From the NCBI GenBank assembly GCA_963711795.1, contig CAVQFD010000005.1:713695-777694 (forward strand): a stretch of 64,000 nt of DNA, given 5' to 3'. Below the pieces are notes generated by a model. It searched no databases, had not been told where the DNA came from, and worked only from the letters and a program-made list of their open reading frames with translations. Below are positions 40,412 to 57,873 of the stretch, one piece after another (position 1 is the stretch's first letter; every line of letters begins with the position of its first letter). The position numbers were made by a program, and so were the translations under genes. This stretch comes from an uncultured Acidobacteriota bacterium (GTDB lineage Bacteria > Acidobacteriota > Vicinamibacteria > Vicinamibacterales > CAVVIG01).

Positions 40412-41804
40412 TCCGGTCTCCCACCGGGGGACGAGGTCGGCCGGGTCGTCGACCGTGCGCAGGTCGAGGAGGAAGCGCCCGTCGCTGATGCGTCCGATGA
40501 TCGGCGGGTGCGCGGCGCGGAAGCGTTCGGCGAGACGGTCGGCCGAGAGGCTGTCGCTCTCGATCGCAATGACCTTGGTCGGCAGTTCCTCGGTCGGTAA
40601 GGCGCCGCTGCCGATCTGCGACGTGGAATCCTCGAGCGACACACGGCAGCCGGCGCCGAGCGCCCGTTGCAGAGATGGCAGGACGTGCCGGCCCATCTCG
40701 GCGATCTCGTCCAGGCTTCTGGTGAAGGCCCTGAGCGTCGGGATGCTGCGGGCGACGTCCGCTGACTGCTGGTAAAGCTTCAGCGTGGCTTCCAGCGCCG
40801 CAAGGGTCAGCTTGCTGCAGCGCACGGCGCGGTGGAGCGGGTTGCCGGCAATCTGTCGCACGAGCGCGCGGGAGCCGACGATGAGCCCCGCTTGAGGGCC
40901 GCCGAGGACCTTGTCGCCGCTGAACGTCACGATGTCGGCGCCAAGCGACACACGCTCGGACACGAGCGGTTCCTTCGGCAGGCCATAGCGGCTGAGATCC
41001 ACGAGCGCGCCGCTCCCGAGGTCCTCCATGACGGGGACGCCGCGGCTTCGGCCAATCGCCACGAGATCGCCGAGCGCGACGTCGGCCGAGAAGCCCACGA
41101 TGCGGTAGTTGCTCGTGTGGACCTTGAGCAGGAGGCCGGTGTTCGGCCCGATGGCCTGCTCGTAGTCGCCCGGATGCGTGCGATTGGTCGTCCCCACTTC
41201 GCGCAGGACGGCGCCGCTCTTGGCGACGATGTCCGGGAATCCGGAATGCCCCGCCGATCTCGACGAGCTCGCCGCGCGAGACCACGACGTCTTTTCCGCT
41301 GGCCAGCGTGTTGATCGCGACCAGGACAGCGGCGGCGTTGTTGTTGACGACCGTGGCGGCCTCGGCGCCGGTCTGCTGGACCAGGAGCGATTCGACCAGC
41401 GCTTCGCGGCTGCCGCGGGCGCCGCGCGTCCAGGTCGTACTCCAGGTTGACCGGGTGACGCGCGGCGAGCGTCAGGGCGTCGATGGCCGGCTGGGGCAAC
41501 AGGGCGCGGCCGAAGTTGGTGTGGAGGATGGTGCCGGTCGCGTTGACGATGCGGACCAGGCCGCTCTGGCGGTCGTGCCGCATGCGCCGCTCGACCCTCG
41601 TGAGGATGTTGTGATCGTCGAGCTCGGCGTGCGGCACCGAGGCTCCCTCCGCGATCTGCCGCCGCAGGTCTGCCACGACGTCACGGCACAGGCCTGCGCA
41701 CGTACGTCGCGGCCGACGCTCGCCATCCAGGCCGTCGCGCGTGCGTGCGACAGCAGCCGATCGACGGACGGCAGGTCTCTGAGCGAGGCTTTCGCCTGCG
41801 TCAT
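40408..41804 (-). pseudogene. selA: L-seryl-tRNA(Sec) selenium transferase; several frame disruptions
   Basis: MTQAKASLRDLPSVDRLL...; IVNATGTILHTNFGRALL; [20 protein letters not shown]...; [18 protein letters not shown] (PLP-lysine region). These lie in different frames. The stop overlaps the selB GTG (GTGA). Confidence 0.85.
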
Positions 41805-41897
41805 GCTCGACGAGGCTGGCACAGTGGGCGCAGGATTTCAACCGAGGGCAGGCTGACGACTGGTTGCAGCGTTAGAGTATGAGGCGCTTCACGCTCA

Positions 41898-41934
41898 GGG
41901 CAGGCGGGGCAGGTGGGGCAGGTGGGGCGGGCAG
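41898..41934 (+). repeat. G-tract repeat GGGcaggcGGGGcaggtGGGGcaggtGGGGcGGGcagg; potential G-quadruplex
   Basis: Five G3-4 tracts with 1-5-nt loops lie between the selA start and tRNA-Sec. Confidence 0.6.
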
Positions 41935-41984: not shown

Positions 41985-42079
41985 GGAGAAGGAAGGTGCC
42001 CGGTGGTGCCGCTGGTCTTCAAAACCAGTCTGGGGGCCGTCAGGCCCTCGGAGGGTTCGACTCCCTCCCTTCTCCGCCA
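41985..42079 (+). tRNA. selC: tRNA-Sec (anticodon UCA at 42019-42021), 95 nt including CCA
   Basis: 8-bp acceptor GGAGAAGG/CCTTCTCC. Anticodon arm CTGGT-CTTCAAA-ACCAG. Long variable arm GGGGCC-gtca-GGCCC. T arm GAGGG-TTCGACT-CCCTC. Discriminator G followed by CCA. Confidence 0.9.
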
Positions 42080-43230
42080 CTAAGTGTTGGCAGAGCTGAG
42101 GTTCACGATCTGCACCAGTCCGCCGTTGCCACGATGTCTGCCACGAACGGCGGAGATTCCGGGGGACTCGAGCAAATCGAATCGCGCCATCGAGCGCTGG
42201 CAGGACTGAGGTGCATGTACCGCTGCGTCGTCGTGAAGTTGGCATGCCCGGCCAACTCCTGAATCGCCCGCGGCGCCGCGCCCCGCATCGCGAGATGCGA
42301 ACAGAACGTGTGCCGTAGACGATGCGGACCATTGCCCTGCAAGGCCTGCGCGTCGTGCCGCTCGGACGACCGCGCCCGCGACGGTGCCTTCGGTAAACGG
42401 CTTGCCGCTGTCGCGATACAGCACCCGTGGGCCCCGCAGATGTTGACGCTTCCGAAGGGCCGCGGTCAGACGAGCCGTCATCGGCACATACCGGAATCCG
42501 GCCGCCCTTCGGCGAATCACCTGGCCTTCCCAGGCGTTCCGCTGCACGCAGAGCGAGCGTTTGACCAGATCCAGGTCGGTCCACTCCAACGCCATAATCT
42601 CGCCCGACCGCAGGCCCGCCTCGCCACTCAGGAGCACGAGCAGATACGTACGACATCGATCGCGTTCGCGGCGGCATCGACGAACCGCTCGTACTCATCG
42701 AAGTCGTAGAAACGAGACCGCGCGACTTGGAGACCTTCAACAGCTTGATCGCTGCACGGCATCTGGTCGATCACGCCCCATTCCACCGCTTTCTTGAGCA
42801 GCGTGTTCAACACGGTGAGGACATTGTTCACGGTCTTCGGCGACTTGCCCTTGCAGATGGGCCTTCAGCCGCTGTACATCTTCGGTCGTGATGGCGTCGA
42901 GCCGCTTGCGCCAACATTGGCTGCAAATGCACGCGCAAGATCAAGTCCTTGGCGTGAATGCCGCTCGGCTTTGTGCTGGTTGGCCCGGGCGTGGCCGTCC
43001 AAAAACCGCGGCGAGAAGTCTTCTAAGGTTGGCACCTCCTTCTTGGGTGAGCGGGTCAGGCGTGGTGCAGCAGATGACCACTCCCGCTCCTGGCTCCCCC
43101 ATCGCTGGGCGGCTATTCGACCCGTGACCGGTCGCCTTCCGCTCCCGGATACGTCGTGCCGTCCGGCAGGACGACCCGAATATCCACATCCCAGCCACCC
43201 TCGTCGATACGGTCTGACTGTTACGCTCAT
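42080..43230 (-). pseudogene. Tyrosine-type site-specific integrase (phage/ICE type, arm-binding N-terminus); several frame disruptions; stop codon abuts the tRNA-Sec 3' end
   Basis: MSVTVRPYRRG...; KEVPTLEDFSPRFLDGHARANQHK; KTVNNVLTVLNTLLKKAVEWGVIDQMPC; LLSGEAGLRSGEIMALEWTDLD; [41 protein letters not shown]. The R..HxxR..Y catalytic elements are visible. Confidence 0.85.
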
Positions 43231-43271: not shown

Positions 43272-43523
43272 CTAGTTTAGCAGAGCGTCCTCGCGGACCA
43301 GCACGCGGCGTCCGATGCGGACGATGCCGGGGAGCTGGCCCCGCTCCACCATCGAGTAGATCGCCTTCCTGGTCGTCCGCAGGAGTTCGGCCACTTCGAC
43401 CGGCGTCAACAAGGCGGGAGCGGGGCTGAGTCTCTGTGCCGCCGTCTCACTTGAGCACGGTGGATGCGCCAGGGTCAGAGGCGCGTGTAGCTTTCCACGA
43501 CTCGGGCTGGCGGGCTTGTTCAT
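43272..43523 (-). CDS. Excisionase/AlpA-like helix-turn-helix protein
   Basis: LLTPVEVAELLRTTRKAIYSMVERGQLPGIVRIGRRVLVREDALL. The ATG shares one nt with the upstream stop (TGATG). Confidence 0.6.
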   Translation of the reverse strand: MNKPASPSRGKLHAPLTLAHPPCSSETAAQRLSPAPALLTPVEVAELLRTTRKAIYSMVERGQLPGIVRIGRRVLVREDALLN

Positions 43524-43855
43524 CAACTCGTCGATTCGGTCCTGGCTCGAATGGCGGACAGGCGCTCGTCCACCTTTTTCCATTTATCGCGGTCCGCCCG
43601 ATCGATCAGTGCGCGCATGGAATCCGCGGTCACGGCTGTTCCGTCTACGAGTGCGAAATGCAGATTCAGGAGGATGACTCGCAGGGCCAGGAACTCGGCG
43701 AGTAACGCGGTCACCATGGGATCGGGCTGCACCGCATGCAGCAGGGTTTTGCGCGCCCACTCGCTAATCGTCAGCGGGGCGGCGAGACTCGCGACGAGCT
43801 CGTACTCCGCGTCTGTGACTTTGGTGCTGAGCGACTTCGTGCGTCGTGTGGCCAT
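43523..43855 (-). CDS. Ribbon-helix-helix (CopG/MobC-like) DNA-binding protein
   Basis: MATRRTKSLSTKVTDAEYELVASLAAPLTISEWARKTLLHAV. It is the first gene of the RHH-Xis-Int operon. Confidence 0.55.
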   Translation of the reverse strand: MATRRTKSLSTKVTDAEYELVASLAAPLTISEWARKTLLHAVQPDPMVTALLAEFLALRVILLNLHFALVDGTAVTADSMRALIDRADRDKWKKVDERLSAIRARTESTS

Positions 43856-43922
43856 GGGGTTCTCCGCAGAGCGAAAACCGGGCCGAAGATCGGCCGCTTC
43901 TCTAACCCGCATCGATTCAACG

Positions 43923-44017
43923 AGTTCCCTGTTGGCAACCGATGTTCCTGGCGAGGAACCGCGCACCGCCAACCGGCGTGTCTTCAGAAGGTTCCGAATG
44001 AGGAACCGAGGTTCCTG
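43923..44017. promoter_or_regulatory. Cluster of GGTTCC/GGAACC inverted and direct repeats upstream of the RHH gene; candidate operator or recombinase arm sites
   Basis: gttccctg, GTTCCTggcgAGGAAC, GGTTCCgaatgaGGAACCgaGGTTCC. Confidence 0.35.
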
Positions 44018-44189
44018 GGCAGCACCCTGCTGGGGGTGACGTGTCACACCTACTCCCGCTGCGCAGCAGCGCTCTTCGCGGCACGCCGTCGCGCGGGTCA
44101 GAATCTGACTCTGCTCGGTCACCAGCCGAGGGTCAGATTTGACCCTTATGGCGGAGCGGTTTCGCAAGGGGAGTTGGCTGACGAGTGAA

Positions 44190-44508
44190 CTACTTACCGA
44201 TCCGGGAAAGCCAGTAGCCAGGTTCGCGGCTGTCGTGCGCAAACGCCAGAATTCGAAAGGCGCCTTCCCACGGTAAGTACACGACGTGGTACGGGAAGCG
44301 CTTCACCGGGACTTGGCGGACGGGCACGTCGTTGGGTAGGCCAGGAACTCGGCGCCCGATCTGCGGCCAACCGGCGATCTGTTCCAGCGCGAAGTCCACG
44401 GCCTGGACCAACTCCAAGCCAAGCCCGTGCGCTGGCCTTCTGTACGACAGTGCGGCGTCTTCAAGCTCGGCGGAGGCTTCTGGCTCGGGGCGGAACTGTA
44501 CCGGTCAT
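44190..44508 (-). CDS. ParE/RelE-family toxin; frameshift right after the ATG
   Basis: ...VQFRPEPEASAELEDAALSYRRPAHGLGLELVQAVDFALEQIAGWPQIG...FPYHVVYLPWEGAFRILAFAHDSREPGYW. The ATG overlaps the antitoxin stop (ATGA). Confidence 0.7.
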
Positions 44509-44750
44509 CGTTCGGTCAGCCGTCGGACAACGCGCGCGCGCACGTCTTCCCACGGTTCACCGGCCGATTCGCCGTTCATCACACGTCGCGCCCGTCGTTC
44601 GATTTCATGAGCCCAGGCGGCTTCGACCTCGGCGGCATTTTTCGCCGGCGCCTCGTCGAGGCTGGCCAACAACTCGGCGGCCACGTCGGCGCGTTCTTCA
44701 ACGGGCAACGTCAAGGCTTCTCGAAGAAGTTCTTGCGCTCGGGACGTCAT
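44505..44750 (-). CDS. Addiction-module antitoxin component
   Basis: MTSRAQELLREALTLPVEERADVAAELLASLDE...EVEAAWAHEIERR. Confidence 0.7.
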   Translation of the reverse strand: MTSRAQELLREALTLPVEERADVAAELLASLDEAPAKNAAEVEAAWAHEIERRARRVMNGESAGEPWEDVRARVVRRLTER

Positions 44751-44776
44751 GTCGCCATTCTAGACTCGGCCGGGCA

Positions 44777-44847
44777 GCCCAACAAGCGGCTGCACCAGAC
44801 GGCTGCGAGCTTTTTGTGCAGCCGCTGGTGAGCCGCGATCGTTAGGC
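44777..44847 (+). repeat. attC site 1 (R'' GCCCAAC ... R' GTTAGGC)
   Basis: gcccaacaagcggctgcacc...ggtgcagccgctggtgagccgcgatcGTTAGGC. L''/L' pair with unpaired bases. Confidence 0.75.
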
Positions 44848-45052
44848 CCTCGGCGGACGGAAGAGCAAGATGACTATCCAGTACGCGCTGTGGCCCGGCG
44901 ACAGTTTCTCTGAACTCTCGGACTTAATTCGTCGTTCGCGGGTGCCGCGTGCGGCTAATTGGGGCTGTGTTGTCGGTTGAATGCGAGCCTGCCCAAGCAA
45001 CGGAAGCGGCGGCTCTTGCCAACGAGTACGGTGAGGCGCTCCGGAAATACTT

Positions 45053-45526
45053 TTGGTTCGCTCGGCTCATGACTGTCGAGGAGGACCGGGGCAATGCCAG
45101 CACGAGCAGTCACCATCCAAGGCAAAACCGCGCCCGAAGGCATCGCGGGATTGTGTGCGACTGAGAGACGCCCGGCGCTCGATTGTCAAACGCGCACATG
45201 CGCGTTTGAGTCAGTGCTACGACTACTTCCAGCTGGCCCGCGATGAACCGAAGCATGCCTTGTTCAATATCTACAAGCTCATTGAGACGATCGAGGGTGA
45301 GTATGGTGGCGAGAAGGAGGCAGCTCGCGCCCTCGACGATGGTGGGCTCATTAAGCGGCTCAAGCGTCACGCGAACCAGGGGGATCATGACCAGCGCCAC
45401 GCCCCGCTTGACCCCGGAGCCGCCGTGCCGATTGACGACAACTCTTTGGCACTGTTGACTGAGGCGACGAACGACTTGCTTCGTAGGTACGAGGATGCGG
45501 TTGCATCAGCGGCGCCATCCTCTTAG
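45053..45526 (+). CDS. Hypothetical cassette ORF; start and frame uncertain
   Basis: ORF only. Readable part is ...RLSQCYDYFQLARDEPKHALFNIYKLIETIEGEYGGEKEAARAL.... Overlapping ORF 44949..45164 suggests a possible frameshift. Confidence 0.35.
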   Translation: MVRSAHDCRGGPGQCQHEQSPSKAKPRPKASRDCVRLRDARRSIVKRAHARLSQCYDYFQLARDEPKHALFNIYKLIETIEGEYGGEKEAARALDDGGLIKRLKRHANQGDHDQRHAPLDPGAAVPIDDNSLALLTEATNDLLRRYEDAVASAAPSS

Positions 45527-45549
45527 TCCTGCTGGCCAAATGCTTCGTG

Positions 45550-45621
45550 GCCTAACAGCGTTCCACCAGTCGGCCGCTGATGCGATCGTGAGCGGCCGCT
45601 CGTGAACGCTGGCCGTTAGAC
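45550..45621 (+). repeat. attC site 2 (GCCTAAC ... GTTAGAC)
   Basis: gcctaacagcgttccaccagtcggccgctgatgcgatcgtgagcggccgctcgtgaacgctggccgttagac. Confidence 0.8.
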
Positions 45622-45721
45622 CGCCAGTCAAGGAGAGGGTGCCGCTCTAGGAGAACTGGTAGGGTACGTCGTCGCGACCGAGTCCGCCTTCTCAATCATT
45701 CACTCATCCAAGGAGACACAC

Positions 45722-46245
45722 ATGCCCATCACCGCATTCAACAGTTTCAGCGACGGACTCGCTCCGAATCAAAGAAGCCGGGAGCATTTCATCGCCAACA
45801 TCGATCTGAAGACGGCCCGCACTGGGTGCCCTATGCCGACGGCGTCTGGATCCAACTCTGCCACTTCAATGTCACGTCCGGCGGATTCAGCGTTGTCCTG
45901 AAAGGTCTCCCGGGCGCCGCGCTGGGCACTCACTACCACATCGGGACCGTTCGGGGCTTTACGATGCGTGGTCAGTGGCGGTACCTGGAACATGACTGGG
46001 TTGCGAAGCCCGGCACGTTCATCTACGAACCCGCCGGCGAGGCCCACACGCTGGTCATCACGGACGACTCCCCGGAGCCGGCGCTGATCTTCTTCGCGGT
46101 CGAGGGCGGCCTCATCTACCTGGACAAGGCGGTCGACGGCGGTTTTGCCGCTTATGAGGACGGCTTTACCGCTTTGGAACTGGCCCGAAAGTACTATCGT
46201 GAGGCCGGTCTCGATGTGCGCAAGCTGGATGCGCTAGTTCGCTAA
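45722..46245 (+). CDS. Cupin-fold protein, 2,4'-dihydroxyacetophenone-dioxygenase-like; one frameshift ~45810
   Basis: An aaggag RBS precedes MPITAFNSFSDGLAPN...EHFIANIDLK. After the shift it reads DGPHWVPYADGVWIQLCHFNVTSGGFSVVLKGLPGAALGTHYHIG...YEPAGEAHTL. Confidence 0.65.
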
Positions 46246-46255
46246 TTGGGCTGCG

Positions 46256-46316
46256 GTCTAACAACCGGTTGCAGCGGACGGCGCTGTCGCGCCGCCGCTG
46301 AACCGGAGCGTTAGCC
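46256..46316 (+). repeat. attC site 3 (GTCTAAC ... GTTAGCC)
   Basis: gtctaacaaccggttgcagcggacggcgctgtcgcgccgccgctgaaccggagcgttagcc. Confidence 0.8.
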
Positions 46317-46347
46317 GGACGAACCAAGCAATTCAGGCTCAAGAACA

Positions 46348-46793
46348 TTGACTGACAATGAACTGGTTCTTGAACACTCCGTCGAGGCAGATGTGAGCGC
46401 GGCATTTGCCTGGGAGGACCGGACCGACATTACAACCTGGATCGATCCACCCGCGACGTTTCAGCTCAATGGGCCATTCGTTGAGGGAACCCAGGGGACA
46501 ACCCTCATGCCGGGACAAGACCGGCTCACGTGGTGGATTCGCGATGTTCACGCCGGATCGTCGTTCGCGATCGAAATGCCATTGGATCGAGCGACGCTCC
46601 GATTCGAATGGCACGTTGTCCCGGTCTCGGAGCAACGGACAAAGCTCACGCAACGGATCATTCTCTCAGGAAGCAACGCCACAGCGTATCGCGAACAGCT
46701 TCAAACGGGATTCGGGTCGACGCTTGCGGCCGGTATGGCAAGGATGTCAGCAGACATGGTGGCGGCGGAGAGAATCGGAAGACTCCCGGCTAA
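46348..46793 (+). CDS. SRPBCC (polyketide cyclase/START-like) protein; frameshift ~46765. The restored frame stops at the TAA inside attC R''
   Basis: MTDNELVLEHSVEADVSAAFAWEDRTDITTWIDPPATFQLNGPF...WWIRDVHAGSSFAIEMPLDRATLRFEWHV. Confidence 0.6.
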
Positions 46794-46866
46794 CTTTCGC
46801 CTGGAGCCGACGCGCCGTTCTTCTGTGCGATCATGCCTGGCGCGCGGCTCAGGCGCAGCGTTGGGC
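46788..46866 (+). repeat. attC site 4 (GGCTAAC ... GTTGGGC)
   Basis: ggctaactttcgcctggagccgacgcgcc...ggcgcgcggctcaggcgcagcgttgggc. Confidence 0.7.
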
Positions 46867-46879
46867 GGACAAGCGATGT

Positions 46880-47551
46880 TCAAGTCTGTACCGAGGCATC
46901 AACCACAGTCTTACGCGATTGAATCGCCCGCCATGAGACGGTCATCAGCCAGGCACAAAAGCTCAGCACCATCAGGCGGTTCAGCCATCCGTTCCACGAG
47001 CCGGGACCGAACACGCGGCCGCTCGACAGTACCGCGATGGTATGGACCAAGGTCACCGCGACGCTTATCCACATGAAGTGGGCTGTCCATCGAATCGACT
47101 GCATGGCGGCCCGCCATGTCTGGCGGCGTCCAAGACTTCGGCTGAGAAGCACACCGGCGATCGGCAAGCTAAGAATGAATATCGCTCCGGCCGCACTATG
47201 AAGCATCCCGTGCGTCGTCATGTCTTCCGGCTTTGTCGTGATGGGATCCACGACAAAGATGCCGCCCACAGCCAGAGCCGCGGCGACAACAAGAAGCAGG
47301 CTGAGCGCGATCCTGCCGCCGGTGGTTTCGATCTCGGAGCGAAGGGCCGCAAATAACGCGGCGCAGCTGAGGGCCATGGAAAACATTGCCATCCTCATGA
47401 CCCAGCCGTAGTCTCCGATGGCGTATTCACTGCCCATACGCCATGAGGGATCCAGTTCCGGTTTGAGGACGTGCAAGATAGCGAGCAAAACAAGGAACGC
47501 GGCGGCAGCGGCAAATGACACGCGAGCTGCAGGTATTGAACTTGCCGTCAT
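46880..47551 (-). CDS. DUF998-like polytopic membrane protein (reverse-oriented cassette)
   Basis: Six predicted TM helices. Sequence includes MTASSIPAARVSFAAAAAFLVLLAILHVLKPELDPSWRMGSEYAIGDYGWVMR. Confidence 0.6.
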   Translation of the reverse strand: MTASSIPAARVSFAAAAAFLVLLAILHVLKPELDPSWRMGSEYAIGDYGWVMRMAMFSMALSCAALFAALRSEIETTGGRIALSLLLVVAAALAVGGIFVVDPITTKPEDMTTHGMLHSAAGAIFILSLPIAGVLLSRSLGRRQTWRAAMQSIRWTAHFMWISVAVTLVHTIAVLSSGRVFGPGSWNGWLNRLMVLSFCAWLMTVSWRAIQSRKTVVDASVQT

Positions 47552-47623
47552 CGATACAACCTCATTCTTCTTTTCGATTCGATGTCATTATCCGTTGTTT
47601 TTCAGCTCAAATAGTTAGCGGTT

Positions 47624-48603
47624 TGGAGTTCCCAGGATTCAGTGGACAGTCGTTTTAGCATCCGCAGCGGAGGCCGATGCCGATGTCCACGAAGCCAGCG
47701 CCGGGCGAGTCCGGTCGACGTACGAATTCATCAAGGCCCATCGAGACCAGTACAGCGTGCAGACGATGTGTCGCGTCCTCGGCGTCGCTCCGAGCGGCTA
47801 CTACGAGTGGCTTCAGCAGCCGATCTCGAACCGCGCGCAAGAGGATGCCCGGCTGCTTCGCCTGATTCGGGCGTCGTTCGTCGCGAGCCACGGCATCTAC
47901 GGCGCGCCGCGCGTCTTCCTCGATCTGCGTGAAGCGGGAGAGACCTGCAGCAAGCATCGCGTCGCGCGGCTGATGCGCGAAGCCAATCTGCGGGCGCTGC
48001 ATGGCTATCGCACGCGGCGCTGGGCCGTCGGGAAGCCGTCGGTCCTGATTCCGAATCTGCTGCAGCGACAATTCACCGTCGACGCGGCCCAACAAGGCCT
48101 GGGTGACCGATATCACCTACATTCGGACCTGGCAGGGCTGGCTCTACCTGGCCGTCGTCATGGATCTGTTCTCGCGCAAGATCGTGGGCTGGGCCGCCGG
48201 CCCGACCATTCACCGCGAGCTCGTGCTCGATGCCGTGCTGATGGCGGTGCGGCGACGACGGCCGCGCGGCACGCTGATTCACTCCGATCAGGGCACCCAG
48301 TACGGCAGCGACGCGTGGCGGCGATTCTGCCGTTCGAATCACCTCGAGCCGAGCATGAGCCGGAAGGGCAACTGCTGGGACAACGCCGTCGCCGAGTCCT
48401 TCTTCAGCAGCTTGAAGAAAGAGCGGATCAAGAAACAGATCTACAAGAACCGGGAGCTGGCGATCGCCGACGTGGCCGACTACATCGATACGTTCTACAA
48501 TCGGACGCGCCGCCACAGTCATCTCGGCGGGCTGAGTCCCGAGCAATTCGAAGCGGCTCACAACCGGCGCCGAAAACGTCTCCACTGAATCCTGGGAACT
48601 CCA
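47624..48603 (+). mobile_element. IS3-family element remnant (980 bp) with 23-bp terminal inverted repeats and no intact orfA
   Basis: IRL TGGAGTTCCCAGGATTCAGTGGA starts at 47624. Its reverse complement ends at 48603. No clear target-site duplication (gtt versus ggc). Confidence 0.8.
47757..48588 (+). pseudogene. IS3-family transposase OrfB (HTH_21 + rve/DDE integrase core); frameshift ~48085
   Basis: MCRVLGVAPSGYYEWLQQPISNRAQEDARLL...HGYRTRRW (ORF 47757) joins VTDITYIRTWQGWLYLAVVMDLFSRKIVGW...IHSDQGTQYGS...DNAVAESFFSSLKKE (ORF 48103..48588). Confidence 0.85.
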
Positions 48604-48646
48604 GGCTCGGCGGTTGCAAGATGAGATGGCGGGCGTGTGATGAGCG

Positions 48647-48718
48647 GTCTAACATGCGTTGCACCAGACGACCGCTGATGCGATCGTGAGCGGCCGCCGG
48701 TGAACGCGGACGTTGAAC
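48647..48718 (+). repeat. attC site 5 (GTCTAAC ... GTTGAAC)
   Basis: gtctaacatgcgttgcaccagacgaccgctgatgcgatcgtgagcggccgccggtgaacgcggacgttgaac. Confidence 0.8.
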
Positions 48719-48929
48719 CGCCGTAGCCCTCAGCGGACCTCCAAAAGACGGACGAACGTTGCCACGATATTGCCACGACGGAGGGCGATTCCAGCGGAGT
48801 CTCGGGGACACCAGTGAACGATTGCACGGTCTAAACTTGATGACTCGGCAGGGCTTGTTGCCAGAAGTCCCACGCCATCGTCATGTTAAAGAATCACGTG
48901 AATAGGGTTCACTCTCCCTTCTCCGCCAC
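48713..48929 (+). repeat. Non-coding cassette segment X, copy 1: ~190-nt conserved block ending in a degenerate copy of the tRNA-Sec 3' end (48905-48929)
   Basis: Near-identical to 52522-52731. It ends gggttcactctcccttctccgccac, against the tRNA sequence gggttcgactccctcccttctccgccac. Confidence 0.8.
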
Positions 48930-48950
48930 GCCCATTCGGGCGTGGCGTTC

Positions 48951-49389
48951 GAAGGGAGCGTCTAGGCTTCGGCCAATGGGCTTCGCCCATCGGCCTCGGC
49001 ACGACTCCCACTGAAGGGAGCGTCCAGGCTTCGTGCGACGGGTTTCACCCATCGCCCTCGGCACGACTCCCGCGGTAGTGCGCGACGTCGGTTCGGGCGT
49101 GGCGTTCGAAGGGAGCGTCTAGGCTTCGGCCAACGGGCTCTGCCCGTTGCCCTCGGCACGACTCCCTCTGAAGGAAGTGTCTGAGGTTCAGGCGATGGGC
49201 TTCGCCCATCGGCCTCGGCACGATCCCCTTGAAGGAGCGGTCTAGGCTTCGGCACGACTCCCGGTTCGAGGGAGCGACTAGGCTTCGGCCATTGAGCTTC
49301 GCTCGTCGGCCTCGGCACGACTCCCTCTAAAGGAAGCGTCTAGGCTGGTTACGATGGCTTCACCAATCGCCCTTGGCATGACTCTCTCT
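48951..49389 (+). repeat. Tandem array of ~7 units (~61-63 nt), each with a GGGAG...CTCCC frame around an internal hairpin
   Basis: Unit is gaagggagcgtctaggcttcGGCCAATGGGCttcGCCCATCGGCCtcggcacgactcccact. Units start at 48951, 49013, 49107, 49170, 49231, 49268 and 49329. Confidence 0.8.
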
Positions 49390-49462
49390 GACTAGCACAC
49401 GTTGCACCTGGCGGCGGCTGTTGCGAGACTGAACCGCCGCTCGTGAACGATAGCCGCTAGGC
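49390..49462 (+). repeat. attC site 6, degenerate cores (ACTAGCA ... GCTAGGC)
   Basis: L''/L' cgttgcacctggcggcgg ... ccgccgctcgtgaacg resemble those of attC 2 and 5. Confidence 0.55.
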
Positions 49463-49641
49463 AGCTACGACCGAATTGGAGAATCGCTCCGCCGATTTGA
49501 ATTGTTCCGTCGCCCAGCTCTGCAGTACAGTCGGCCAACTTACCACACGGCCGCAGACGACGGATATCGTGCGCCGGTGCTGATGCGGCTCCGTTCGGCC
49601 GACTCGCACTTCGCCAATGTGTGAACTGGAAGAGAGTTGCT

Positions 49642-50120
49642 ATGAAATGGCTGCTGCTCACCATCGGACTAGCTTCCTTAGCCGCTGGTCTGTCTTCGCA
49701 GGGCAAGCGGGTTATCGTCGTCCAGCCTTTCACTCTTGCGTCCGGTGTGGAATTGCCGTACGACACCAAGCTGCTTCAAACACAACTTGTCGCTGATCTC
49801 AAAGTTCAGATCGGCAAGGAGTTCGACTTCGTCGTGGAACCTCCCGCAGCTCCTCAGGGGTCGCTTTATAAGCTGGATGGGGAGATCACGGGCTGGCGTC
49901 CAGGCAATGCTGCCAAACGCCTCGTTATCGGCCTAGGCTCTGGTCGAGAAGCGACGGACATCCATTATTTTGTTACCGACACGTCTGGCCAAAAGGCCAT
50001 CGACCGGACGGACACAATACGTACAACTTCTACTCTCAAGGTGCTGGGTCTGTCGGGACGCTGGTGCATCCGATCGCTCAAAAGATCGCTGAGCGCCTTA
50101 AGGACGCTAGGTTGAAATAG
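49642..50120 (+). CDS. DUF4410-like lipoprotein; frameshift ~50025
   Basis: MKWLLLTIGLASLAAGLSSQGKRVIVVQPFT...LDGEITGWRPGNAAKRLVIGLGSGREATDIHYFV. The restored end is RTNFYSQGAGSVGTLVHPIAQKIAERLKDARLK. Confidence 0.55.
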
Positions 50121-50208
50121 GCCGCCGAACATGGATTGCAGCTGAACGGCGGTCCCAGGACCTGATGACGCGTCGCCGGAAGAAGAGATGATTTCGCGCC
50201 AAGGGCCG

Positions 50209-50317
50209 GTCTAACCGGCCGCTGCACCTGACGGCATCGGGCCGCGCTCACGCGCGCCCCTCGCGCTCGGTGCTATGGTGACTCGCGCGTGCCGCAGCTA
50301 AGCGGCAGGCGTTAGGC
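50209..50317 (+). repeat. attC site 7, long form (GTCTAAC ... GTTAGGC)
   Basis: gtctaaccggccgctgcacc...gtgccgcagctaagcggcaggcgttaggc. Confidence 0.65.
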
Positions 50318-50340
50318 TGACCTTAAGGCCGGGAAAGACG

Positions 50341-50820
50341 ATGCTCATGGATGTGGAGATCCTCGCAGATCAGATCAGCAGGGCCTTCCGGGGCGAGTCC
50401 TGGCATGGGCCCTCGGTGCTCGAGGTGCTGGCGGGTGTCTCGGCGGAAGACGCCGCCGCCCACCCAATTGCCGGAGCTCACAGCATTTGGGAGATCGTCC
50501 TTCACCTGGGTGCTGGATACACTTTGGTCCTTCGGCGCGTTCGTGGAGAGCGTGCAGCGCTCTCGCCGGAAGAAGAGTGGCCTCCAGTGCCGGCGTCCAG
50601 TTCGGAGGCGTGGCGCGAAAGCCAGCGAGCCTTGGAGGAACTCAACGAGCAGCTGCAGGGCGTTGTGCGCGCCTTCCCGGCGGAGCGCCTTCTCCAGGAG
50701 CTGGGCTCCGAGTACTCGGCGTACACCCAGTTCGCCGGCACGCCGCAGCACGACCTATATCATGCGGGTCAGGTCGTTCTACTCAAGAAGGCACTCGCTG
50801 CCTCGCGAAGGGCAGCCTAA
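50341..50820 (+). CDS. DinB-family (DinB_2-like) protein
   Basis: MLMDVEILADQISRAFRGESWHGPSVLEVL...AHSIWEIVLHL...HDLYHAGQVVLLKK. The stop TAA lies inside attC R'' GCCTAAC. Confidence 0.75.
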   Translation: MLMDVEILADQISRAFRGESWHGPSVLEVLAGVSAEDAAAHPIAGAHSIWEIVLHLGAGYTLVLRRVRGERAALSPEEEWPPVPASSSEAWRESQRALEELNEQLQGVVRAFPAERLLQELGSEYSAYTQFAGTPQHDLYHAGQVVLLKKALAASRRAA

Positions 50821-50890
50821 CAACGAGACGAAGCTGACAAGCTGCGATGACGTTGGCTCCCGCACCTTGCAGCTTATCTCGGTGTTATCC
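50815..50890 (+). repeat. attC site 8 (GCCTAAC ... GTTATCC)
   Basis: gcctaacaacgagacgaagctgacaagctgc...gcaccttgcagcttatctcggtgttatcc. Confidence 0.65.
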
Positions 50891-50940
50891 GGACACGGAA
50901 CAAACGCGAATCCAATTCGCGGATCGTTATTGACCTGGCA

Positions 50941-51390
50941 ATGTTTGAACACGTTACTGAGAAGAAGCGCAGTCGATGGCGGACCTTCTGGCCAGAGGTT
51001 GCGGACATCGGTGGAGCCGACGAAGCCATCCGTCTGGGCTACTGGACATGCTCCTTGGTAGCCGGCTTGACTGCTGTGGTGGCACTATTCGGGCAGACAT
51101 GGTCGGGATTGGTCGACGCCCTCGTCTTCGCGCTGCTCGGTCTTGGGTTGAAGCGAAGGTGGCGAAGCGCCGCCGTTGCGGCCTTTCTCCTTTTTGCACT
51201 CAACGTCGTCATCAGCCTCAGTCGCTCGCCGCTTGTCGGGGTGCTCACGGTCATCTTCTTTGTCTGTCTGCTGAGCGGAGTCCGCGGCACGTTTGCGCAC
51301 CGGCGTCTCATCGCCCAAGGCATACAGCCCGGGTCTGGCGTGCCGGTGAATCTAGAAGCTGCGAAACAGGATGGGGACGGTGCCGGATAA
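50941..51390 (+). CDS. Hypothetical membrane protein (3 TM helices)
   Basis: LGYWTCSLVAGLTAVVALFG...LVFALLGLGL...AAFLLFALNVVISL...VLTVIFFVCLLSG. The stop TAA lies inside attC R'' GGATAAC. Confidence 0.5.
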   Translation: MFEHVTEKKRSRWRTFWPEVADIGGADEAIRLGYWTCSLVAGLTAVVALFGQTWSGLVDALVFALLGLGLKRRWRSAAVAAFLLFALNVVISLSRSPLVGVLTVIFFVCLLSGVRGTFAHRRLIAQGIQPGSGVPVNLEAAKQDGDGAG

Positions 51391-51478
51391 CAGCGGCTGG
51401 ACCCGACGGCGGCCCTCGTCGCGAACGAGCTGACTCGCGGGTGATCAGCCACCGCGGGTCAGCCGCCTGCCGTTAGGT
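51385..51478 (+). repeat. attC site 9 (GGATAAC ... GTTAGGT)
   Basis: ggataacagcggctggacccgacggcgg...ccaccgcgggtcagccgcctgccgttaggt. Confidence 0.65.
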
Positions 51479-51497
51479 GCTGCCCATCCCTCTCAAT

Positions 51498-52013
51498 ATG
51501 CGACTCCTCCTCGCACTCAGAGCTCTCTTCTTCGTCCTGCTGCTACCCGGTACACTGGCCGGCTACATCCCATTCAGCATCCTCCGAGCCGACAACCTAC
51601 TGCGCGTCCCAGCCCTCGGGCTCTCCTCCGTCTGCGCCGCCGTCTTCGCCATCACCGGTGCTCTTGTCCTCCTCCGGTGCGTCTGGGACTTCTTCGACGC
51701 AGGCAAGGGCACTCTCGCCCCTATCGATCCCCCACGCTTCCTTGTTGTCCGAGGTCTGTACCGCTTCACCCGCAACCCTATGTACAACGGCGTCATCGCC
51801 CTCATCCTCGGGGAGGCGTGGCTTTTCCAGAGCATCGGTCTGGCAAAGTACGCACTTCTAGTCCTCATCCTCTTCCACTTGTTCGTGGTCCTCTACGAGG
51901 AGCCTGCCCTTGAGTCACAGTTCGGGGAGTCGTATCGGGCCTACCGGCGTGCGGTTCCCCGCTGGGGCTTCACGACTCGGCCGTTTCAAGAGAGCACCGG
52001 GAGCACCGCCTAA
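51498..52013 (+). CDS. Isoprenylcysteine carboxyl / phospholipid methyltransferase-family membrane protein
   Basis: MRLLLALRALFFVLLLPG...LVVRGLYRFTRNPMYNGVIALILGEA...EEPALESQFGESYRAYRRAVPRW. The stop TAA lies inside attC R''. Confidence 0.75.
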   Translation: MRLLLALRALFFVLLLPGTLAGYIPFSILRADNLLRVPALGLSSVCAAVFAITGALVLLRCVWDFFDAGKGTLAPIDPPRFLVVRGLYRFTRNPMYNGVIALILGEAWLFQSIGLAKYALLVLILFHLFVVLYEEPALESQFGESYRAYRRAVPRWGFTTRPFQESTGSTA

Positions 52014-52102
52014 CATGCCGTTGCAGCTGACTGTCACGAGCCCTGCCGGCGCGAGCACGCGCAGCAGGGCTCGCGCCAGCAGCTGGACGCCGGTCGTTAG
52101 GC
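52008..52102 (+). repeat. attC site 10 (GCCTAAC ... GTTAGGC)
   Basis: gcctaacatgccgttgcagctg...cagcagctggacgccggtcgttaggc. Confidence 0.75.
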
Positions 52103-52457
52103 GGACAAGGCCAGGAAAGAGGGGGGAGTGTGCCCAATTCGATATCTCCAGAAGAACTCCGAGACCTGCACCTGCCTCAGCTTGGTCGGCGACTTAATTT
52201 CAAACGTGCGGGCTCGATTCGACCTTCAGGCGCCTGGGGCGCCTGCGAAGCGCAGGTCGATGACGTCACCACATGTGTTCATGTGTTCTCTATGCCGAAA
52301 TAGTAGAAGGACACGTGAAGAAGTTCGGCACAACTGGCTCGTTGCGGGACAGACAGTCACTGATGCCAAGACGTAGAGGGTGAGCTCAACGATCACGACA
52401 AGACAATTGAGTACCGGTTGGGCAACGAGGCGGAATTGATTGCGGACATGCATGACT

Positions 52458-52527
52458 GCCTAACATGGCATGCAGCCGACAGCGCGCGTGACTACGAGTG
52501 CGCTGCGGCTGAAGCCTGACGTTGAAC
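52458..52527 (+). repeat. attC site 11 (GCCTAAC ... GTTGAAC)
   Basis: gcctaacatggcatgcagccgacagcgcgcgtgactacgagtgcgctgcggctgaagcctgacgttgaac. Confidence 0.75.
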
Positions 52528-52731
52528 CGCTGTAGCCCTCAGCGGACCTCCAAAAGACGGACGAACGCTGCCACGATACTGCCACGACGGAGGGGAGTCT
52601 CGGGGACACCAGTGAACGATTGCACGGTCTGAACTTGCTGACTCGGCAGGGCTTGTTGCCCGAAGTCCCATGCCATCGTCATGTTAAAGAATCACGTGAA
52701 TAGGGTTCGACTCCCTCCCTTCTCCGCCACT
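52522..52731 (+). repeat. Non-coding cassette segment X, copy 2, ending in an exact 29-nt copy of the tRNA-Sec 3' end (52703-52731)
   Basis: gggttcgactccctcccttctccgccact is identical to 42053-42081. Confidence 0.85.
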
Positions 52732-52761
52732 TTCCTCGCTTGTGGCTCGGTCAGTAGCGGA

Positions 52762-52870
52762 GAAAGGGAGCGTCTAGGCTTCGGTCAACCGGCTTTGCCC
52801 GTTGCCCTCGGCACGACTCCCACTGAAGGGAGATCTAGGCTTTGGGCAATGAGCTCCGCTCATCGCCGAT
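52762..52870 (+). repeat. Two further units of the ~62-nt hairpin tandem repeat
   Basis: gaaagggagcgtctaggcttcggtcaaccggctttgcccgttgccctcggcacgactcccact and gaagggagatctaggctttgggcaatgagctccgctcatcgcc. Confidence 0.75.
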
Positions 52871-52944
52871 CCTACACAGGTCGTAACCCGTGTCGTCGCG
52901 TGGCTCCGTCAGCGGTAATCTCGGTCGACAACATCAGATGGGTC

Positions 52945-53017
52945 GGCTAACCTCCGCTTGCAGCCGTCGGCGGCTGGTGCGATCGTGAGCCGCCGCGGCT
53001 GAAGCGGCGCGTTGGGC
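52945..53017 (+). repeat. attC site 12 (GGCTAAC ... GTTGGGC); last one seen
   Basis: ggctaacctccgcttgcagccgtcggcggctggtgcgatcgtgagccgccgcggctgaagcggcgcgttgggc. Confidence 0.8.
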
Positions 53018-53134
53018 TGCGGACGTGTGTTCTTGGATGGAGAGCGAGGCACTATGCAGGTCATTCGACGGTTCGCCGGTGCTGTTTGCGTTCGACAACA
53101 TCGTGGCCGAGTTGGTGCAAAAGGCGGGTGCCGC

Positions 53135-54241
53135 ATGATGACCCTGCAGCGTTGGATCCTTGCTGCCATCATTCTTTTCATTGGCGCCGTCACACCCTCC
53201 GTCGTGGCCCAGAACGCGAACGTCTCACCACCTGCCGCCAGCGCACCTGCCCCGCAGGCTGTCGCGCCTTCGTCCGGTTGTCACAACGAGCAGGGACTGA
53301 CCTACCTGTGTGACCTCAGCGTCCCGGAAGACATCCTGAACCTTGGTTCCTCCGGCCTTCTGCTTGTGTCCGGTCACCGTGCGCCCGGTCACCTGTATCT
53401 GATCGATCCTGCGACACGGACGCAGTCGGAGCTCATCCACGGCGCTACCTTCAGGCTCCAGCACGACACCCGCGCCTATCCCGACTGTCCGGGGCCGCTG
53501 AACCTGCAGGCCTTCGATGTCCACGGTCTCAGCCTGGCCGAGACGTCGCCCCGGTATTTCAGCCTGTACACCACGAGCCATGGCGCGCGCGAAGCCATCG
53601 AAATCTACGATCTCGACCTTCGCGGCACGGCGCCGAGCCTCACCTGGAAGGGCTGTGTCCTCCTGCAGCAGGACAGTTACCACAACAGCGTCGCCCGGCT
53701 CGCCGACGGCGGATTCGTGACGACCAGAATGCGGGACCAGAACTTCAGGGGTGGTGGAGGTGCCCCAGCCGGCATCACCGGCCATCTGATCGAGTGGCAT
53801 CCGGGCGGCCAACCCCAGCCGCTCCCCGACACCGAGATGTCGCTGCCGAACGGCATCGACGTCTCGAAGGACGAGCGCTACATCTACGTGGCCGCCATCG
53901 GCTCGCAGGAGTTGGTTCGTTTCGATCGCCGGGCGACGCCGATTGCCAAGCGCACGGTGTCACTGCCCATTCGGCCGGACAACGTCCACTGGGCCACCAA
54001 TGGCAAGCTTCTGACCGCCGGTCCCAACTATGTCCCGCCTGCGGTGTGCAGCGGCGCGGGCTGCGCCACGGGCTGGTCGGTGCTCGAAGTCGATCCGGAG
54101 ACGTTGGCCTTCTCGCGGCTCGGCGGCGCGGATCAAACGGCCGCGATGCAGCGCGTGAGCTCGGCCATGCGAGTGGGCGACGACATCTGGGTTGGCAGCA
54201 ACGACGACCGTATCGCCCGCTTCTCGCTGCGCCGGCCTTGA
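53135..54241 (+). CDS. Secreted SMP-30/gluconolactonase/arylesterase-like beta-propeller protein
   Basis: Signal peptide is MMTLQRWILAAIILFIGAVTPSVVAQ. Further segments: ...LPNGIDVSKDERYIYVAAIGSQELVRF...DDIWVGSNDDRIARF. Confidence 0.6.
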   Translation: MMTLQRWILAAIILFIGAVTPSVVAQNANVSPPAASAPAPQAVAPSSGCHNEQGLTYLCDLSVPEDILNLGSSGLLLVSGHRAPGHLYLIDPATRTQSELIHGATFRLQHDTRAYPDCPGPLNLQAFDVHGLSLAETSPRYFSLYTTSHGAREAIEIYDLDLRGTAPSLTWKGCVLLQQDSYHNSVARLADGGFVTTRMRDQNFRGGGGAPAGITGHLIEWHPGGQPQPLPDTEMSLPNGIDVSKDERYIYVAAIGSQELVRFDRRATPIAKRTVSLPIRPDNVHWATNGKLLTAGPNYVPPAVCSGAGCATGWSVLEVDPETLAFSRLGGADQTAAMQRVSSAMRVGDDIWVGSNDDRIARFSLRRP

Positions 54242-54343
54242 ACACACTCCGGGATCAGTTCGACTGATCGCCCACTCGCGTGACCGCGCCACGACGTAAG
54301 CGCTCTGGATGAATTACACCGTGTCCAGGCTTCGGAGGCTGAC

Positions 54344-54826
54344 ATGACGAATCGCGGCTCGAGGAGCGTGTGGTCGATATGCGTCCTGTTAGCGGCTTTC
54401 TGCTCGGTGGCGGCACAGCCGCCGGGTGTCGCGGCGGACGTACTTGCCTTCGAGCGCGAGATTGAGGCCGCAGTCGTTCGCGGCGATGTTCGCTTCGTCG
54501 ACGCCGCATCGGCGCCGACCTTCACCTTCACACACGGCGATGGGTGGACCACGGGTGGCGCACCGCTCCGCGTCGACAGCCGCGCGGATTGGCTGGCGAC
54601 GGTGGCCAAGTCACCATACGCGTCGCGCGTGCTCGACTCGGTGAAGACCGAAGTGCATGGAGATGTCGTCATCACTTACGGACGCTACGTCGGGCGCTTC
54701 AAGGACGCCGCTCCTGGACGCCGGCAGTTCACCGTGTGGTATCAGCGTGTTTACGCGAAGCGCGACGGCAAGTGGCAGTACCTCTCGCATCGCACGGTCC
54801 ACGGACCCGTCTACGAGAAAGAGTAA
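54344..54826 (+). CDS. DUF4440/SnoaL-like (NTF2 fold) secreted protein
   Basis: LAFEREIEAAVVRGDVRFVDAASAPTFTFTHGDG...VVITYGRYVGRF...FTVWYQRVYAKRDGKWQYLSHRT. Confidence 0.7.
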   Translation: MTNRGSRSVWSICVLLAAFCSVAAQPPGVAADVLAFEREIEAAVVRGDVRFVDAASAPTFTFTHGDGWTTGGAPLRVDSRADWLATVAKSPYASRVLDSVKTEVHGDVVITYGRYVGRFKDAAPGRRQFTVWYQRVYAKRDGKWQYLSHRTVHGPVYEKE

Positions 54827-54828
54827 TC

Positions 54829-55912
54829 ATGTCCAAGCCAGAATCAACCTCCAGCGGACGCCGTGATTTTCTGCAGGCCATGATTGGTGCGCCTGCGCTC
54901 GCCGCCGCGCTGGTCGAGACGGCGCAGGCAGCAGCAGGCGCAGCGCGACGTCTTCGTCAAGCACGCGTACGAGGAACACACGGTCAACCTTGGCGAGGTG
55001 GTGATGAATTACGTGGTCTCGGGCTCAGCGGCGAGCCCGGCCCTGCTGCTCATCCCGGGCCAGACCGAGTCGTGGTGGGGGTTCGAGAAGGCCATAGCCC
55101 TTCTGGACAAGGAGTTTCAGGTGTATGCCGTGGATCTGCGCGGGCAGGGCCGCAGCACGTGGACGCCGCGCCGCTACACGCTCGACAACATGGGCAACGA
55201 CCTCGTGCGCTTCATCGCCCTGGTGATCAAACGGCCGGTCATCACCAGCGGGTGCTCGTCCGGCGGCGTGCTGTCGGCCTGGTTGTCGGCCTTTGCCATG
55301 CCCGGGCAGGTGCGTGCGTCCCACTACGAAGATCCACCGCTCTTTGCCTCCGAATACAGCCCCCGCTACGGTCATTCCGTCCGCCAAAGCGCCGTTGGCC
55401 CGGCCTTCGAAGCGTTTGCGAAGTACCTCGGCGATCAGTGGAGCGTTGGCGACTGGGCAGGAATGGTGGCGTCTCGCGCGGCCGGCGCGCGTTCAACTGC
55501 GGGAGCGCAAAGGGGCGGCGCGCAGGGCGGTGCAGTGCCGCGAGCCGATGCGGCGGCGGCCGGCGGGCCGCCGCCCGGGCCTCCACAGAATCTCAAGGAA
55601 TATGATCCCGAATGGGCGCGGGCCTTCATCGAGGGGACCGTGGCCCTGAGCTGCCCCCACGAGCGGATGCTGGCCCAGGTCAAAGTGCCCGTGCTCTTCA
55701 CCCACCACAGCCGCGCGATCGATCCTGCCACCGGCCAGCTCGTTGGCGCGATTTCGGACTTGCAGGCCACCAAGGTGAACGAAATCGTGACCGCTGCGGG
55801 CCAATCATTTGAGTACGTGTCATTGCCCGACGCGGCGCATGCGATGCACCAGGCAGATCCTGCCCGCTTTGCTCAGGTGCTGACTACATGGGCAAGGAAA
55901 CTTCCTGCGTGA
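54829..55912 (+). CDS. Alpha/beta hydrolase with a Tat-type signal; frameshift ~54940
   Basis: MSKPESTSSGRRDFLQAMIGAPALAAAL, then after the shift ...ALLLIPGQTESWWGFEKAI...VYAVDLRGQGRS...ITSGCSSGGVLSAWL (nucleophile elbow)...DAAHAMH. Confidence 0.75.
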
Positions 55913-57860: not shown

Positions 57861-57873
57861 CTGCGTTCACCTA

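Follow-up and report, generated by a model that had tools for sequence, protein, structure and literature searches.

The window analysed here is a 64-kb stretch of DNA from an uncultured Acidobacteriota bacterium of the order Vicinamibacterales (assembly GCA_963711795.1, contig CAVQFD010000005.1, positions 713,695 to 777,694), and it contains a series of short palindromic elements that divide single genes from one another in the manner of an integron cassette array. Upstream of a tRNA-Sec gene (41985-42079) lie selD, selB and selA, and between the tRNA-Sec gene and the array are genes for a tyrosine recombinase (int), an excisionase-type protein (xis) and a small protein (orf110). The G+C content is ~66-70% across the window and drops to 60-63% at 42-53 kb. 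The initial annotation, made from the letters of the DNA, had recognised the elements as attC sites and offered two explanations for them, a cluster of attC sites lacking an integron integrase (CALIN) carried on a tRNA-Sec island, or an integron platform served by an atypical recombinase.

The attC sites of the array

Twelve attC-type elements, 61-109 nt long, lie within 8.2 kb (44777-53017), all of them where the initial annotation had placed them. On the plus strand each has an RYYYAAC-like box (R'') at its 5' end and a GTTRRRY-like box (R') at its 3' end; the strict consensus of both cores is matched in half of the elements (6 of 12) and the remaining six are off by one or two bases.

44777-44847: attC a1
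45550-45621: attC a2
46256-46316: attC a3
46788-46866: attC a4
48647-48718: attC a5
49390-49462: attC a6
50209-50317: attC a7 (109 nt)
50815-50890: attC a8
51385-51478: attC a9
52008-52102: attC a10
52458-52527: attC a11
52945-53017: attC a12

Folding of the bottom (minus) strands as single-stranded DNA, one of the checks proposed in the initial annotation, gives hairpins with two 1-nt bulges on the 3' arm and a terminal loop of variable length. The bulges, which are the extrahelical bases expected of attC, are a T followed by a C, 6 bp apart and 3 bp from the unpaired spacer. Their positions are the same as those of the T/G bulges of aadA-type attCs folded likewise, and their kind (T/C) is identical to that of the attCs of blaVIM-2, cmlA1 and estX, with which the window elements also have the L'' motif GYTGCAGCCGAC in common. 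In an alignment of the 12 elements, RNAalifold found 13 consensus pairs, eight of which show compensatory changes.

A covariance model of the 12 elements (R1), run over the whole window with filters off, recovered exactly these 12 at 47-80 bits, all on the minus strand; the elements are thus confined to 44.8-53.0 kb and co-oriented. The next-best match (23.5 bits, E 0.002), at 32211-32279 on the minus strand, lies inside a 1119-aa open reading frame (ORF) and is probably due to chance. As R1 is circular with regard to attC identity, an independent model (R2) was built from class 1 integrons in clinical plasmids located via the IntI1 protein. Eight arrays were read and nine attCs entered the model, those of aadB, aadA1, aadA2, aacA4, cmlA1, aac(6')-29a, blaVIM-2, psp and qacL. 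R2 stands in for the IntegronFinder attC model with which the initial annotation had suggested testing the elements, and was likewise run over the whole window with filters off. Its top 10 minus-strand matches are 10 of the 12 elements, with correct ends (39.2-14.1 bits, E 8e-8 to 0.32); five have E < 0.01, the best being a3 at 39.2 bits. IntegronFinder retains attCs at E < 1 (PMC4889954). No other locus in the window exceeded 11.5 bits with R2, the sole extra match being a 15.3-bit plus-strand echo of a3. R2 missed a6 (57 bits on R1) and a9, and did not find the R1 match at 32211-32279. The minus-strand location of the R2 matches makes the plus strand the top strand and puts the integrase-proximal end of the array on the left, in line with the earlier prediction. 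A strict-core match at 59564-59645 was dropped as an attC candidate, being supported by neither R1 nor R2.

A larger set comprises 60 distinct attCs of the window type from 12 loci, with an alignment fitted to the model, so that its counts lean towards the model. In this set the proportion of paired cells is 94%, and changes on both sides occur in 13 of the 20 pairs; none of 500 shuffles reached these values and slid controls were at most 39% paired. The R-box pairs are 89% paired over the 60 attCs. In a6 the R boxes have changed in step (R'' from AAC to AGC, R' from GTT to GCT) and pairing is retained; with its conserved cleavage triplet lost, a6 is probably an inactive attC.

That the repeats belong to an unrelated family of repetitive extragenic palindromic (REP) or other palindromic sequences mimicking attC is close to negligible as an explanation. 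In its favour, the window elements are short, GC-rich, imperfect palindromes, and they have no Rfam match at gathering thresholds, from which no conclusion is drawn (tRNA-Sec is the sole Rfam match in the window at these thresholds). However, the remaining 55 kb of the window contains no copy, all 12 elements share one orientation and separate single-gene units, R2 detects them despite having been trained on clinical attCs alone, and arrays of the same type start at a bona fide IntI and attI in four related loci (L018, L021, L023 and L024, described below). The R and L boxes, the bulges, the R2 matches and the restriction to the array agree with the original assignment: the twelve elements are genuine attC sites of an integron cassette array. 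Their recombination by IntI as folded single strands is predicted.

The adjacent recombinase and the tRNA-Sec island

The genes on the integrase-proximal side of the array are as follows.

41985-42079, plus strand: tRNA-Sec (ARAGORN; Rfam RF01852, 74 bits)
42080-43230, minus strand: island integrase (int), lambda-type tyrosine recombinase, frameshifted, read as a three-frame translation
43272-43583, minus strand: xis, excisionase-type helix-turn-helix protein (Pfam HTH_17; TIGR01764 excisionase domain), reading frame open
43523-43855, minus strand: orf110, faint match to NikA/ribbon-helix-helix-like proteins (PF21983, E 0.012)

The int pseudogene begins 1 nt past tRNA-Sec and is broken up over all three frames. 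Its reconstructed product aligns with Pfam Phage_integrase along 168 residues and has no insertion, whereas IntI1 spans 201 residues over the same profile positions. On TIGR02249 it scores 42.7 bits against a cut-off of 265, with IntI1 (508 bits) and the IntI proteins of L021 (446) and L018 (410) as positive controls. With a score below the cut-off and the IntI insertion missing, the adjacent recombinase is not an IntI, and the initial annotation was right to see no recognisable IntI here. Homologues of int number more than 4000; they are lambda-type island integrases with an arm-binding N-terminus, 371-380 aa long and for the most part from soil metagenomes, and the closest of them is intact and shares 75% identity with int.

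An exact 30-bp repeat of the tRNA-Sec 3' end is present at 42052-42081 (attL core) and 52702-52731 (attR core), 10.65 kb apart, and doublets of TGCCACGA, putative arm-type binding sites, occur near both island ends. The repeat, xis and the doublets together identify int as the integrase of a lambda-type island inserted in tRNA-Sec. Both hallmarks of a tRNA-integrated island are therefore found, a tyrosine integrase beside the tRNA and a direct repeat at the far end. Of the genes that mobility would call for, xis is open and int is frameshifted as the sequence stands, where a local assembly error is possible. The initial annotation had overlooked the int frameshifts and the 30-bp repeat, together with an insertion sequence (IS) remnant of the IS3 family and the duplication of the island ends, both described below.

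Related loci

One genome per species was scanned for the attC centre shared by several elements, which led to four Acidobacteriota contigs from metagenome-assembled genomes, one of them named Vicinamibacterales; each has an array of R1-type sites in one orientation. Further arrays were reached via a cassette protein, and the most informative loci via homologues of the island integrase.

Locus L021 (GCA_973516775.1) consists of tRNA-Sec, int (75% amino-acid identity), xis, a full-length 320-aa IntI (the 446-bit TIGR02249 match given above) and then R1-type attC cassettes up to the contig end. It is 87% identical to the window from the tRNA core through int, xis and orf110 to 44145, and its selA, selB and selD are intact and syntenic with those of the window. 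In L022 the same int and xis are found at tRNA-Sec on an island of ~9.5 kb that has no attC, and the right arm in unit X2 of the window (described below) matches the attR of this island. L024, L025 and L026, from three samples, were reached through the L021 IntI and have tRNA-Ser(GCT), int, xis, a 110-aa gene, IntI and six attCs; the L024 island is 11.6 kb long and is delimited by a 20-nt repeat of the tRNA 3' end. Like the L024 island, those at tRNA-Sec in L021 and L022 have a repeat of their own. The position of orf110, between xis and intI, is kept in every related island.

In L023 there are attCs and a related IntI, but neither int nor xis is nearby, and L018 has an IntI to the left of nine co-oriented R1-type attCs. 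Arrays of the window type begin beside a bona fide IntI and attI in L018, L021, L023 and L024; in all four, intI runs in the same direction as the cassettes and attI is downstream of the intI stop. At NCBI, many of the IntI proteins already carry the name 'integron integrase [Vicinamibacterales bacterium]'. The L018 IntI (477-1355) ends in ...STTMITRTC before its stop, compared with ...STTMIYTHV; the catalytic tyrosine is apparently missing, owing either to a frameshift or to an error in sequencing.

Arrays in L005 (1-260) and L007 (6586-8054) start right after housekeeping genes, encoding orotidine monophosphate (OMP) decarboxylase and a glycosyltransferase respectively, with no IntI, and CALIN-type arrays seem to be common in the lineage. 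The L007 array opens with a reversed toxin-antitoxin unit, as does that of the window. L006 and L019 have homologues of a cassette protein, few or no attCs and no integrase, and are uninformative here.

These loci bear on whether the window array could be a working integron-like platform run by the adjacent non-IntI tyrosine recombinase, the second explanation of the initial annotation. The recombinase is on the side predicted by the orientation of the attCs and is the sole recombinase within 10 kb. Yet the idea is very improbable: int is broken by many frameshifts and belongs to a family of lambda-type island integrases with arm-binding N-termini, a close homologue sits at tRNA-Sec on an attC-free island (L022), relatives with the same int (L021, L024, L026) also have a true IntI beside the array, and the window sites fit R2, a model made from IntI1 substrates.

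Probable loss of intI and attI

The stretch between orf110 and the first cassette, where intI would be expected, has two features.

43856-44172: orf110-intI intergenic region with palindromes GTTCC-N6-GGAAC, GTGACGTGTCAC and GGGTCAGATYTGACCC, from a four-way alignment with L021, L024 and L026
44162-44183: deletion junction, with intI and attI missing

The palindromes of the intergenic region are strongly conserved between the window (43900-44145), L021, L024 and L026, with GTTCC-N6-GGAAC present two or three times together with GTGACGTGTCAC and GGGTCAGATCTGACCC. They are probably operators or promoters. They lie between the divergent orf110 and intI and, as operators, may tie the regulation of the integron integrase to that of the island. 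In the initial annotation the palindromes and the GTTGGCT that follows them had been taken for an attI-like junction. The comparison removes this possibility, since the palindromes belong to the conserved orf110-intI intergenic region and the true attI of the lineage lies past the intI stop; GTTGGCT at 44173 marks the deletion junction instead.

In the window, TCGCAAGGGGA at 44162-44172 matches an 11-nt stretch whose end lies 6 nt ahead of the L021 intI ATG, and homology to L021 stops at G/TTGGCT (44173-44179; the slash marks the border). Searches of the window by tblastn with IntI1 and the IntI proteins of L018 and L021 hit only the generic C-terminal box of int. In the relatives, attI takes up ~255 nt following the intI stop; its sequence is conserved in three of them as far as ...CTACTCCAATACNC/GTTAG and divergent beyond, and this lineage motif has no match in the window at up to 3 mismatches. 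The point at which homology ends, the lack of an intI remnant and the lack of attI indicate that intI and attI were deleted, so that the array now starts with a reversed toxin-antitoxin unit. The right breakpoint coincides with a cassette-type GTT and would fit an IntI-mediated event at a secondary site. A complete integron has intI beside the array and attI at its integrase-proximal end; the window has neither, and its 12 attCs in 8.2 kb, with no intI in the 64 kb of the window, correspond to a CALIN.

Cassette contents

Cassette borders were cut at the G/TT of each core, which gives units of 425-1852 bp. Ten of them are listed here, and the two that contain island ends (X1 and X2) are given in the next section.

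44174-44847, minus strand: cassette 1, ParE-family toxin-like ORF (44193-44504) and Unstab_antitox antitoxin (44508-44750; Pfam), both reversed; attC a1
44842-45621, plus strand: cassette 2, 157-aa ORF (45053-45526), no family match; attC a2
45616-46316, plus strand: cassette 3, ChrR-type cupin (45826-46245; Pfam Cupin_7); attC a3
46311-46866, plus strand: cassette 4, ORF from 46348, no family match, reading through attC a4 as the sequence stands
46861-48718, minus strand: cassette 5, DUF998 membrane protein (46880-47551; reversed, Pfam); attC a5
49457-50317, plus strand: cassette 7, DUF4410 lipoprotein-like ORF (49621-50115; Pfam); attC a7
50312-50890, plus strand: cassette 8, DinB_2 protein (50341-50820; Pfam); attC a8
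50885-51478, plus strand: cassette 9, 149-aa membrane protein (50941-51390); attC a9
51473-52102, plus strand: cassette 10, PEMT/ICMT-family methyltransferase (51477-52013; Pfam); attC a10
52097-52527, plus strand: cassette 11, short ORF (52128-52376), no match; attC a11

Pfam backs the antitoxin, cupin, DUF998, DUF4410, DinB and ICMT labels of the initial annotation, while its SRPBCC label finds no support in Pfam, NCBIfam or a sequence search of the PDB. The ParE/antitoxin pair stands on the antitoxin side through Unstab_antitox and is weaker on the toxin side. The toxin-like ORF has no proper start codon as the sequence stands and no Pfam match, and the PDB sequence search gave the ParE label E 0.66; the label comes from its 39% identity (E 2e-16) to a toxin in L005 that is paired with Unstab_antitox and has a ParE_toxin match that is itself weak. 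At least four ORFs had been said to end at the TAA inside R''. This holds for three real ones (DinB, the membrane protein and PEMT); the fourth, 52681-52950, spans attR and repeats and is therefore spurious. Two of the units described as non-coding are the duplicated island ends. The idea that the cassettes may hold defence genes gained nothing from PADLOC, which found no defence-family match among 10 cassette ORFs.

In cassette 3, an ATG at 45722 is out of frame with the cupin ORF. Cassette 5 contains the IS3-family remnant (47624-48606; Pfam HTH_21 and rve), inserted downstream of the DUF998 ORF; orfA is missing, orfB has a frameshift near 48085 and the terminal inverted repeats are ~23 bp long.

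After the last attC, the window at 53012-59400 has small and medium plus-strand genes (SGL-like, DUF4440, alpha/beta hydrolase and others) and a slightly lowered G+C content; neither R1 nor R2 detected an attC there. Far to the left, at 6300-7500, a frame plot of third-position G+C (GC3) hints at plus-strand coding, the open ORFs are only short and on the minus strand, and Rfam has nothing at gathering thresholds; this stretch may be a disrupted gene or a non-coding RNA.

The duplicated right end

Two units of the array carry a copy of the right end of the island.

48713-49462, plus strand: unit X1, from the TT of the a5 core, right-arm copy with two TGCCACGA repeats, attC a6; inside it a degenerate tRNA-Sec 3' copy (48904-48929) and seven 62-nt tandem units (48935-49378; Tandem Repeats Finder, TRF)
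52522-53017, plus strand: unit X2, right arm with two TGCCACGA repeats, exact 30-bp tRNA-Sec 3' copy, attC a12; inside it two 62-nt units (52764-52870)

X1 and X2 are paralogous, and both start at the TT of a GTTGAAC core. Their duplication would reflect either two stacked island generations or an IntI-mediated duplication of the junction as a cassette. Similarity that starts exactly at the core fits both: a border between variable cassettes and the conserved island end that is seen twice in stacked islands, or a junction that was duplicated like a cassette.

The 62-nt units are imperfect hairpins that end in CGACTCCC, like the T-arm of a tRNA, and they follow every extra tRNA-Sec 3' copy. In L021 one such unit (6015-6089) lies between tRNA-Sec and the island, and the units therefore seem to be native sequence from downstream of tRNA-Sec; they may serve as putative secondary attachment sites. 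A CRISPR-like or attC-related array was considered for them and rejected, given that there are no spacers, that R1 and R2 have no match and that one unit follows tRNA-Sec in L021.

Local decay or assembly error

Damage in the window extends beyond int. The selB and selA genes (38400-41900, minus strand) are split over several frames, whereas in L021 and L022 they are intact (SelA 457-463 aa, SelB 638-643 aa). The selD gene (37387-38379) is open and is preceded by an in-frame stop, a possible selenocysteine (Sec) codon. The sel damage could represent a selenocysteine pathway decaying beside a retained tRNA-Sec, or an error-rich stretch of the assembly.

If the frameshifts of int, selA and selB were local assembly errors, the island could still be mobile and simply carry a CALIN. 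Unpaired indels relative to L021 are mostly 1-nt insertions outside homopolymers and are concentrated at 38.6-43.2 kb, and selD appears to retain an in-frame Sec codon, which is sensible only with working SelA and SelB. The nucleotide indel list itself is confounded by alignment artefacts at 77-87% identity. Against a mobile island, long flanking genes are uninterrupted (for example the 1119-aa ORF at 29029-32388), so that any errors must be strongly localised; an old, decaying locus is also indicated by the IS3 remnant and the degenerate second tRNA copy; and intI and attI are missing either way. A still-mobile island is thus unlikely, and the damage to int and the sel genes is read here as real local decay, with which the IS remnant and the degenerate second core agree.

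Origin of the array

The region is very probably a CALIN, left over from an integron that was carried by a small tRNA-integrating island and has lost intI and attI. This reading builds directly on the identity and orientation of the attCs, on the lack of intI and attI, on the island repeats and on how the related islands are arranged. Of the two explanations first offered, it is the CALIN on a tRNA-Sec island that prevails, given 12 attCs, no intI, and a tRNA-Sec gene with int and a 30-bp repeat.

In the intact relatives the island has the order tRNA, int, xis and orf110 (all on the minus strand), intI (plus strand) and attI, cassettes (plus strand), right arm and a copy of the tRNA 3' end. 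The lambda-type Int, together with Xis, would excise the island and insert it at a tRNA-Sec or tRNA-Ser gene, and IntI would shuffle the cassettes at attI and the folded bottom strands of the attCs. In the window, a deletion with its left end at most ~10 nt from the intI start and its right end at a cassette-type G/TT would have taken intI and attI, and int has also accumulated frameshifts. The cassettes would now be movable only in trans, by an IntI encoded elsewhere, and the island would be fixed in place. The reversed ParE/antitoxin cassette may help to retain the array.

Several observations weigh against this account. The last attC, a12, falls beyond the 30-bp repeats and there are two copies of the right-arm module, so that a picture of one island with one array is incomplete. 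The breakpoint of the intI deletion is uncertain by ~10 nt. The absence of intI covers the 64-kb window, and an IntI elsewhere in the genome could keep the array active. The int frameshifts cluster with the selA and selB damage, and in a locally error-rich assembly int might be intact. Lastly, no cassette ORF is common to the window and its relatives, so the case for shared island descent rests on the int-xis-orf110 module and the attC type.

A wider proposal is that int-xis-orf110-intI-attI constitutes an undescribed, self-mobilising 'integron island' of soil Vicinamibacterales, a small integrative element that carries whole arrays between the tRNA-Sec and tRNA-Ser genes of different genomes. 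We put this forward tentatively, as a possibility that falls somewhat short of probable. If true, the complete integron would be the essential cargo, these chromosomal integrons would be mobile rather than sedentary, and the window would be a decayed, perhaps twice-stacked example in which the duplicated unit of right arm, tRNA end, repeats and attC would show IntI treating the attachment junction of the island as a cassette.

Relation to known systems

CALINs were defined by Cury et al. in 2016, who proposed integrase loss as one of their origins and found recognisable intI pseudogenes near just 15 of 279 (PMC4889954). The window array resembles them in having attCs in one orientation (at least two are needed; here there are 12), promoterless single-gene cassettes, no intI within 10 kb and an IS inside the array. 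It differs in that its ancestor can be reconstructed from relatives, that the junction is placed ~10 nt from the intI start and that the array is inside a tRNA-Sec island.

An Acidobacteria-specific attC type and model were published by Ghaly et al. in 2021 (PMC8352920). The chromosomal integrons of that study share with the window the phylum, attCs that are homogeneous within the lineage, and soil-typical cassettes (DinB, methyltransferases, toxin-antitoxin pairs and unknowns), whereas the window is without the integrase that defines a complete integron. In the inverted-integrase integrons of Treponema and others (PMC4889954), as in the relatives of the window, intI is co-directional with the cassettes and attI is past the intI stop. 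Those integrons belong to another phylum, and the likeness is one of intI direction and attI position.

Integrons on integrative elements include the class 4 integron on the SXT integrative and conjugative element and the class 1 integron In104 on SGI1. In these, as in the relatives of the window, an integron resides on an element with its own tyrosine integrase, excisionase and specific chromosomal target. The islands of the relatives differ in being small (11.6 kb in L024), in carrying the integron as essentially their sole cargo, in targeting tRNA-Sec or tRNA-Ser and in having intI directly beside int-xis-orf110; no conjugation genes were seen in the parts of these islands that were read. 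The selC (tRNA-Sec) islands of enterobacteria, such as LEE and SHI-2, likewise have a P4/lambda-type integrase beside tRNA-Sec, and their far boundary is marked by a direct repeat of the 3' end of the tRNA. Their cargo and host are unrelated, and in the window the integrase is decayed and the distal end duplicated.

CALINs are common and their origin is mostly untraceable. The window array is real, lacks its own recombinase and has no recognisable defence or resistance genes, and together with its intact relatives, through which the loss of intI and attI can be pinned down to ~10 bases, it provides a clear case of the birth of an orphan array. Of greater interest as a lead are the relatives, a family of small islands that target tRNA genes and carry complete integrons. 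In these, the integrons of an abundant, little-studied soil phylum are located on islands that have an integrase and an excisionase, which suggests a route, besides transposons and plasmids, by which whole arrays may be transferred between genomes.

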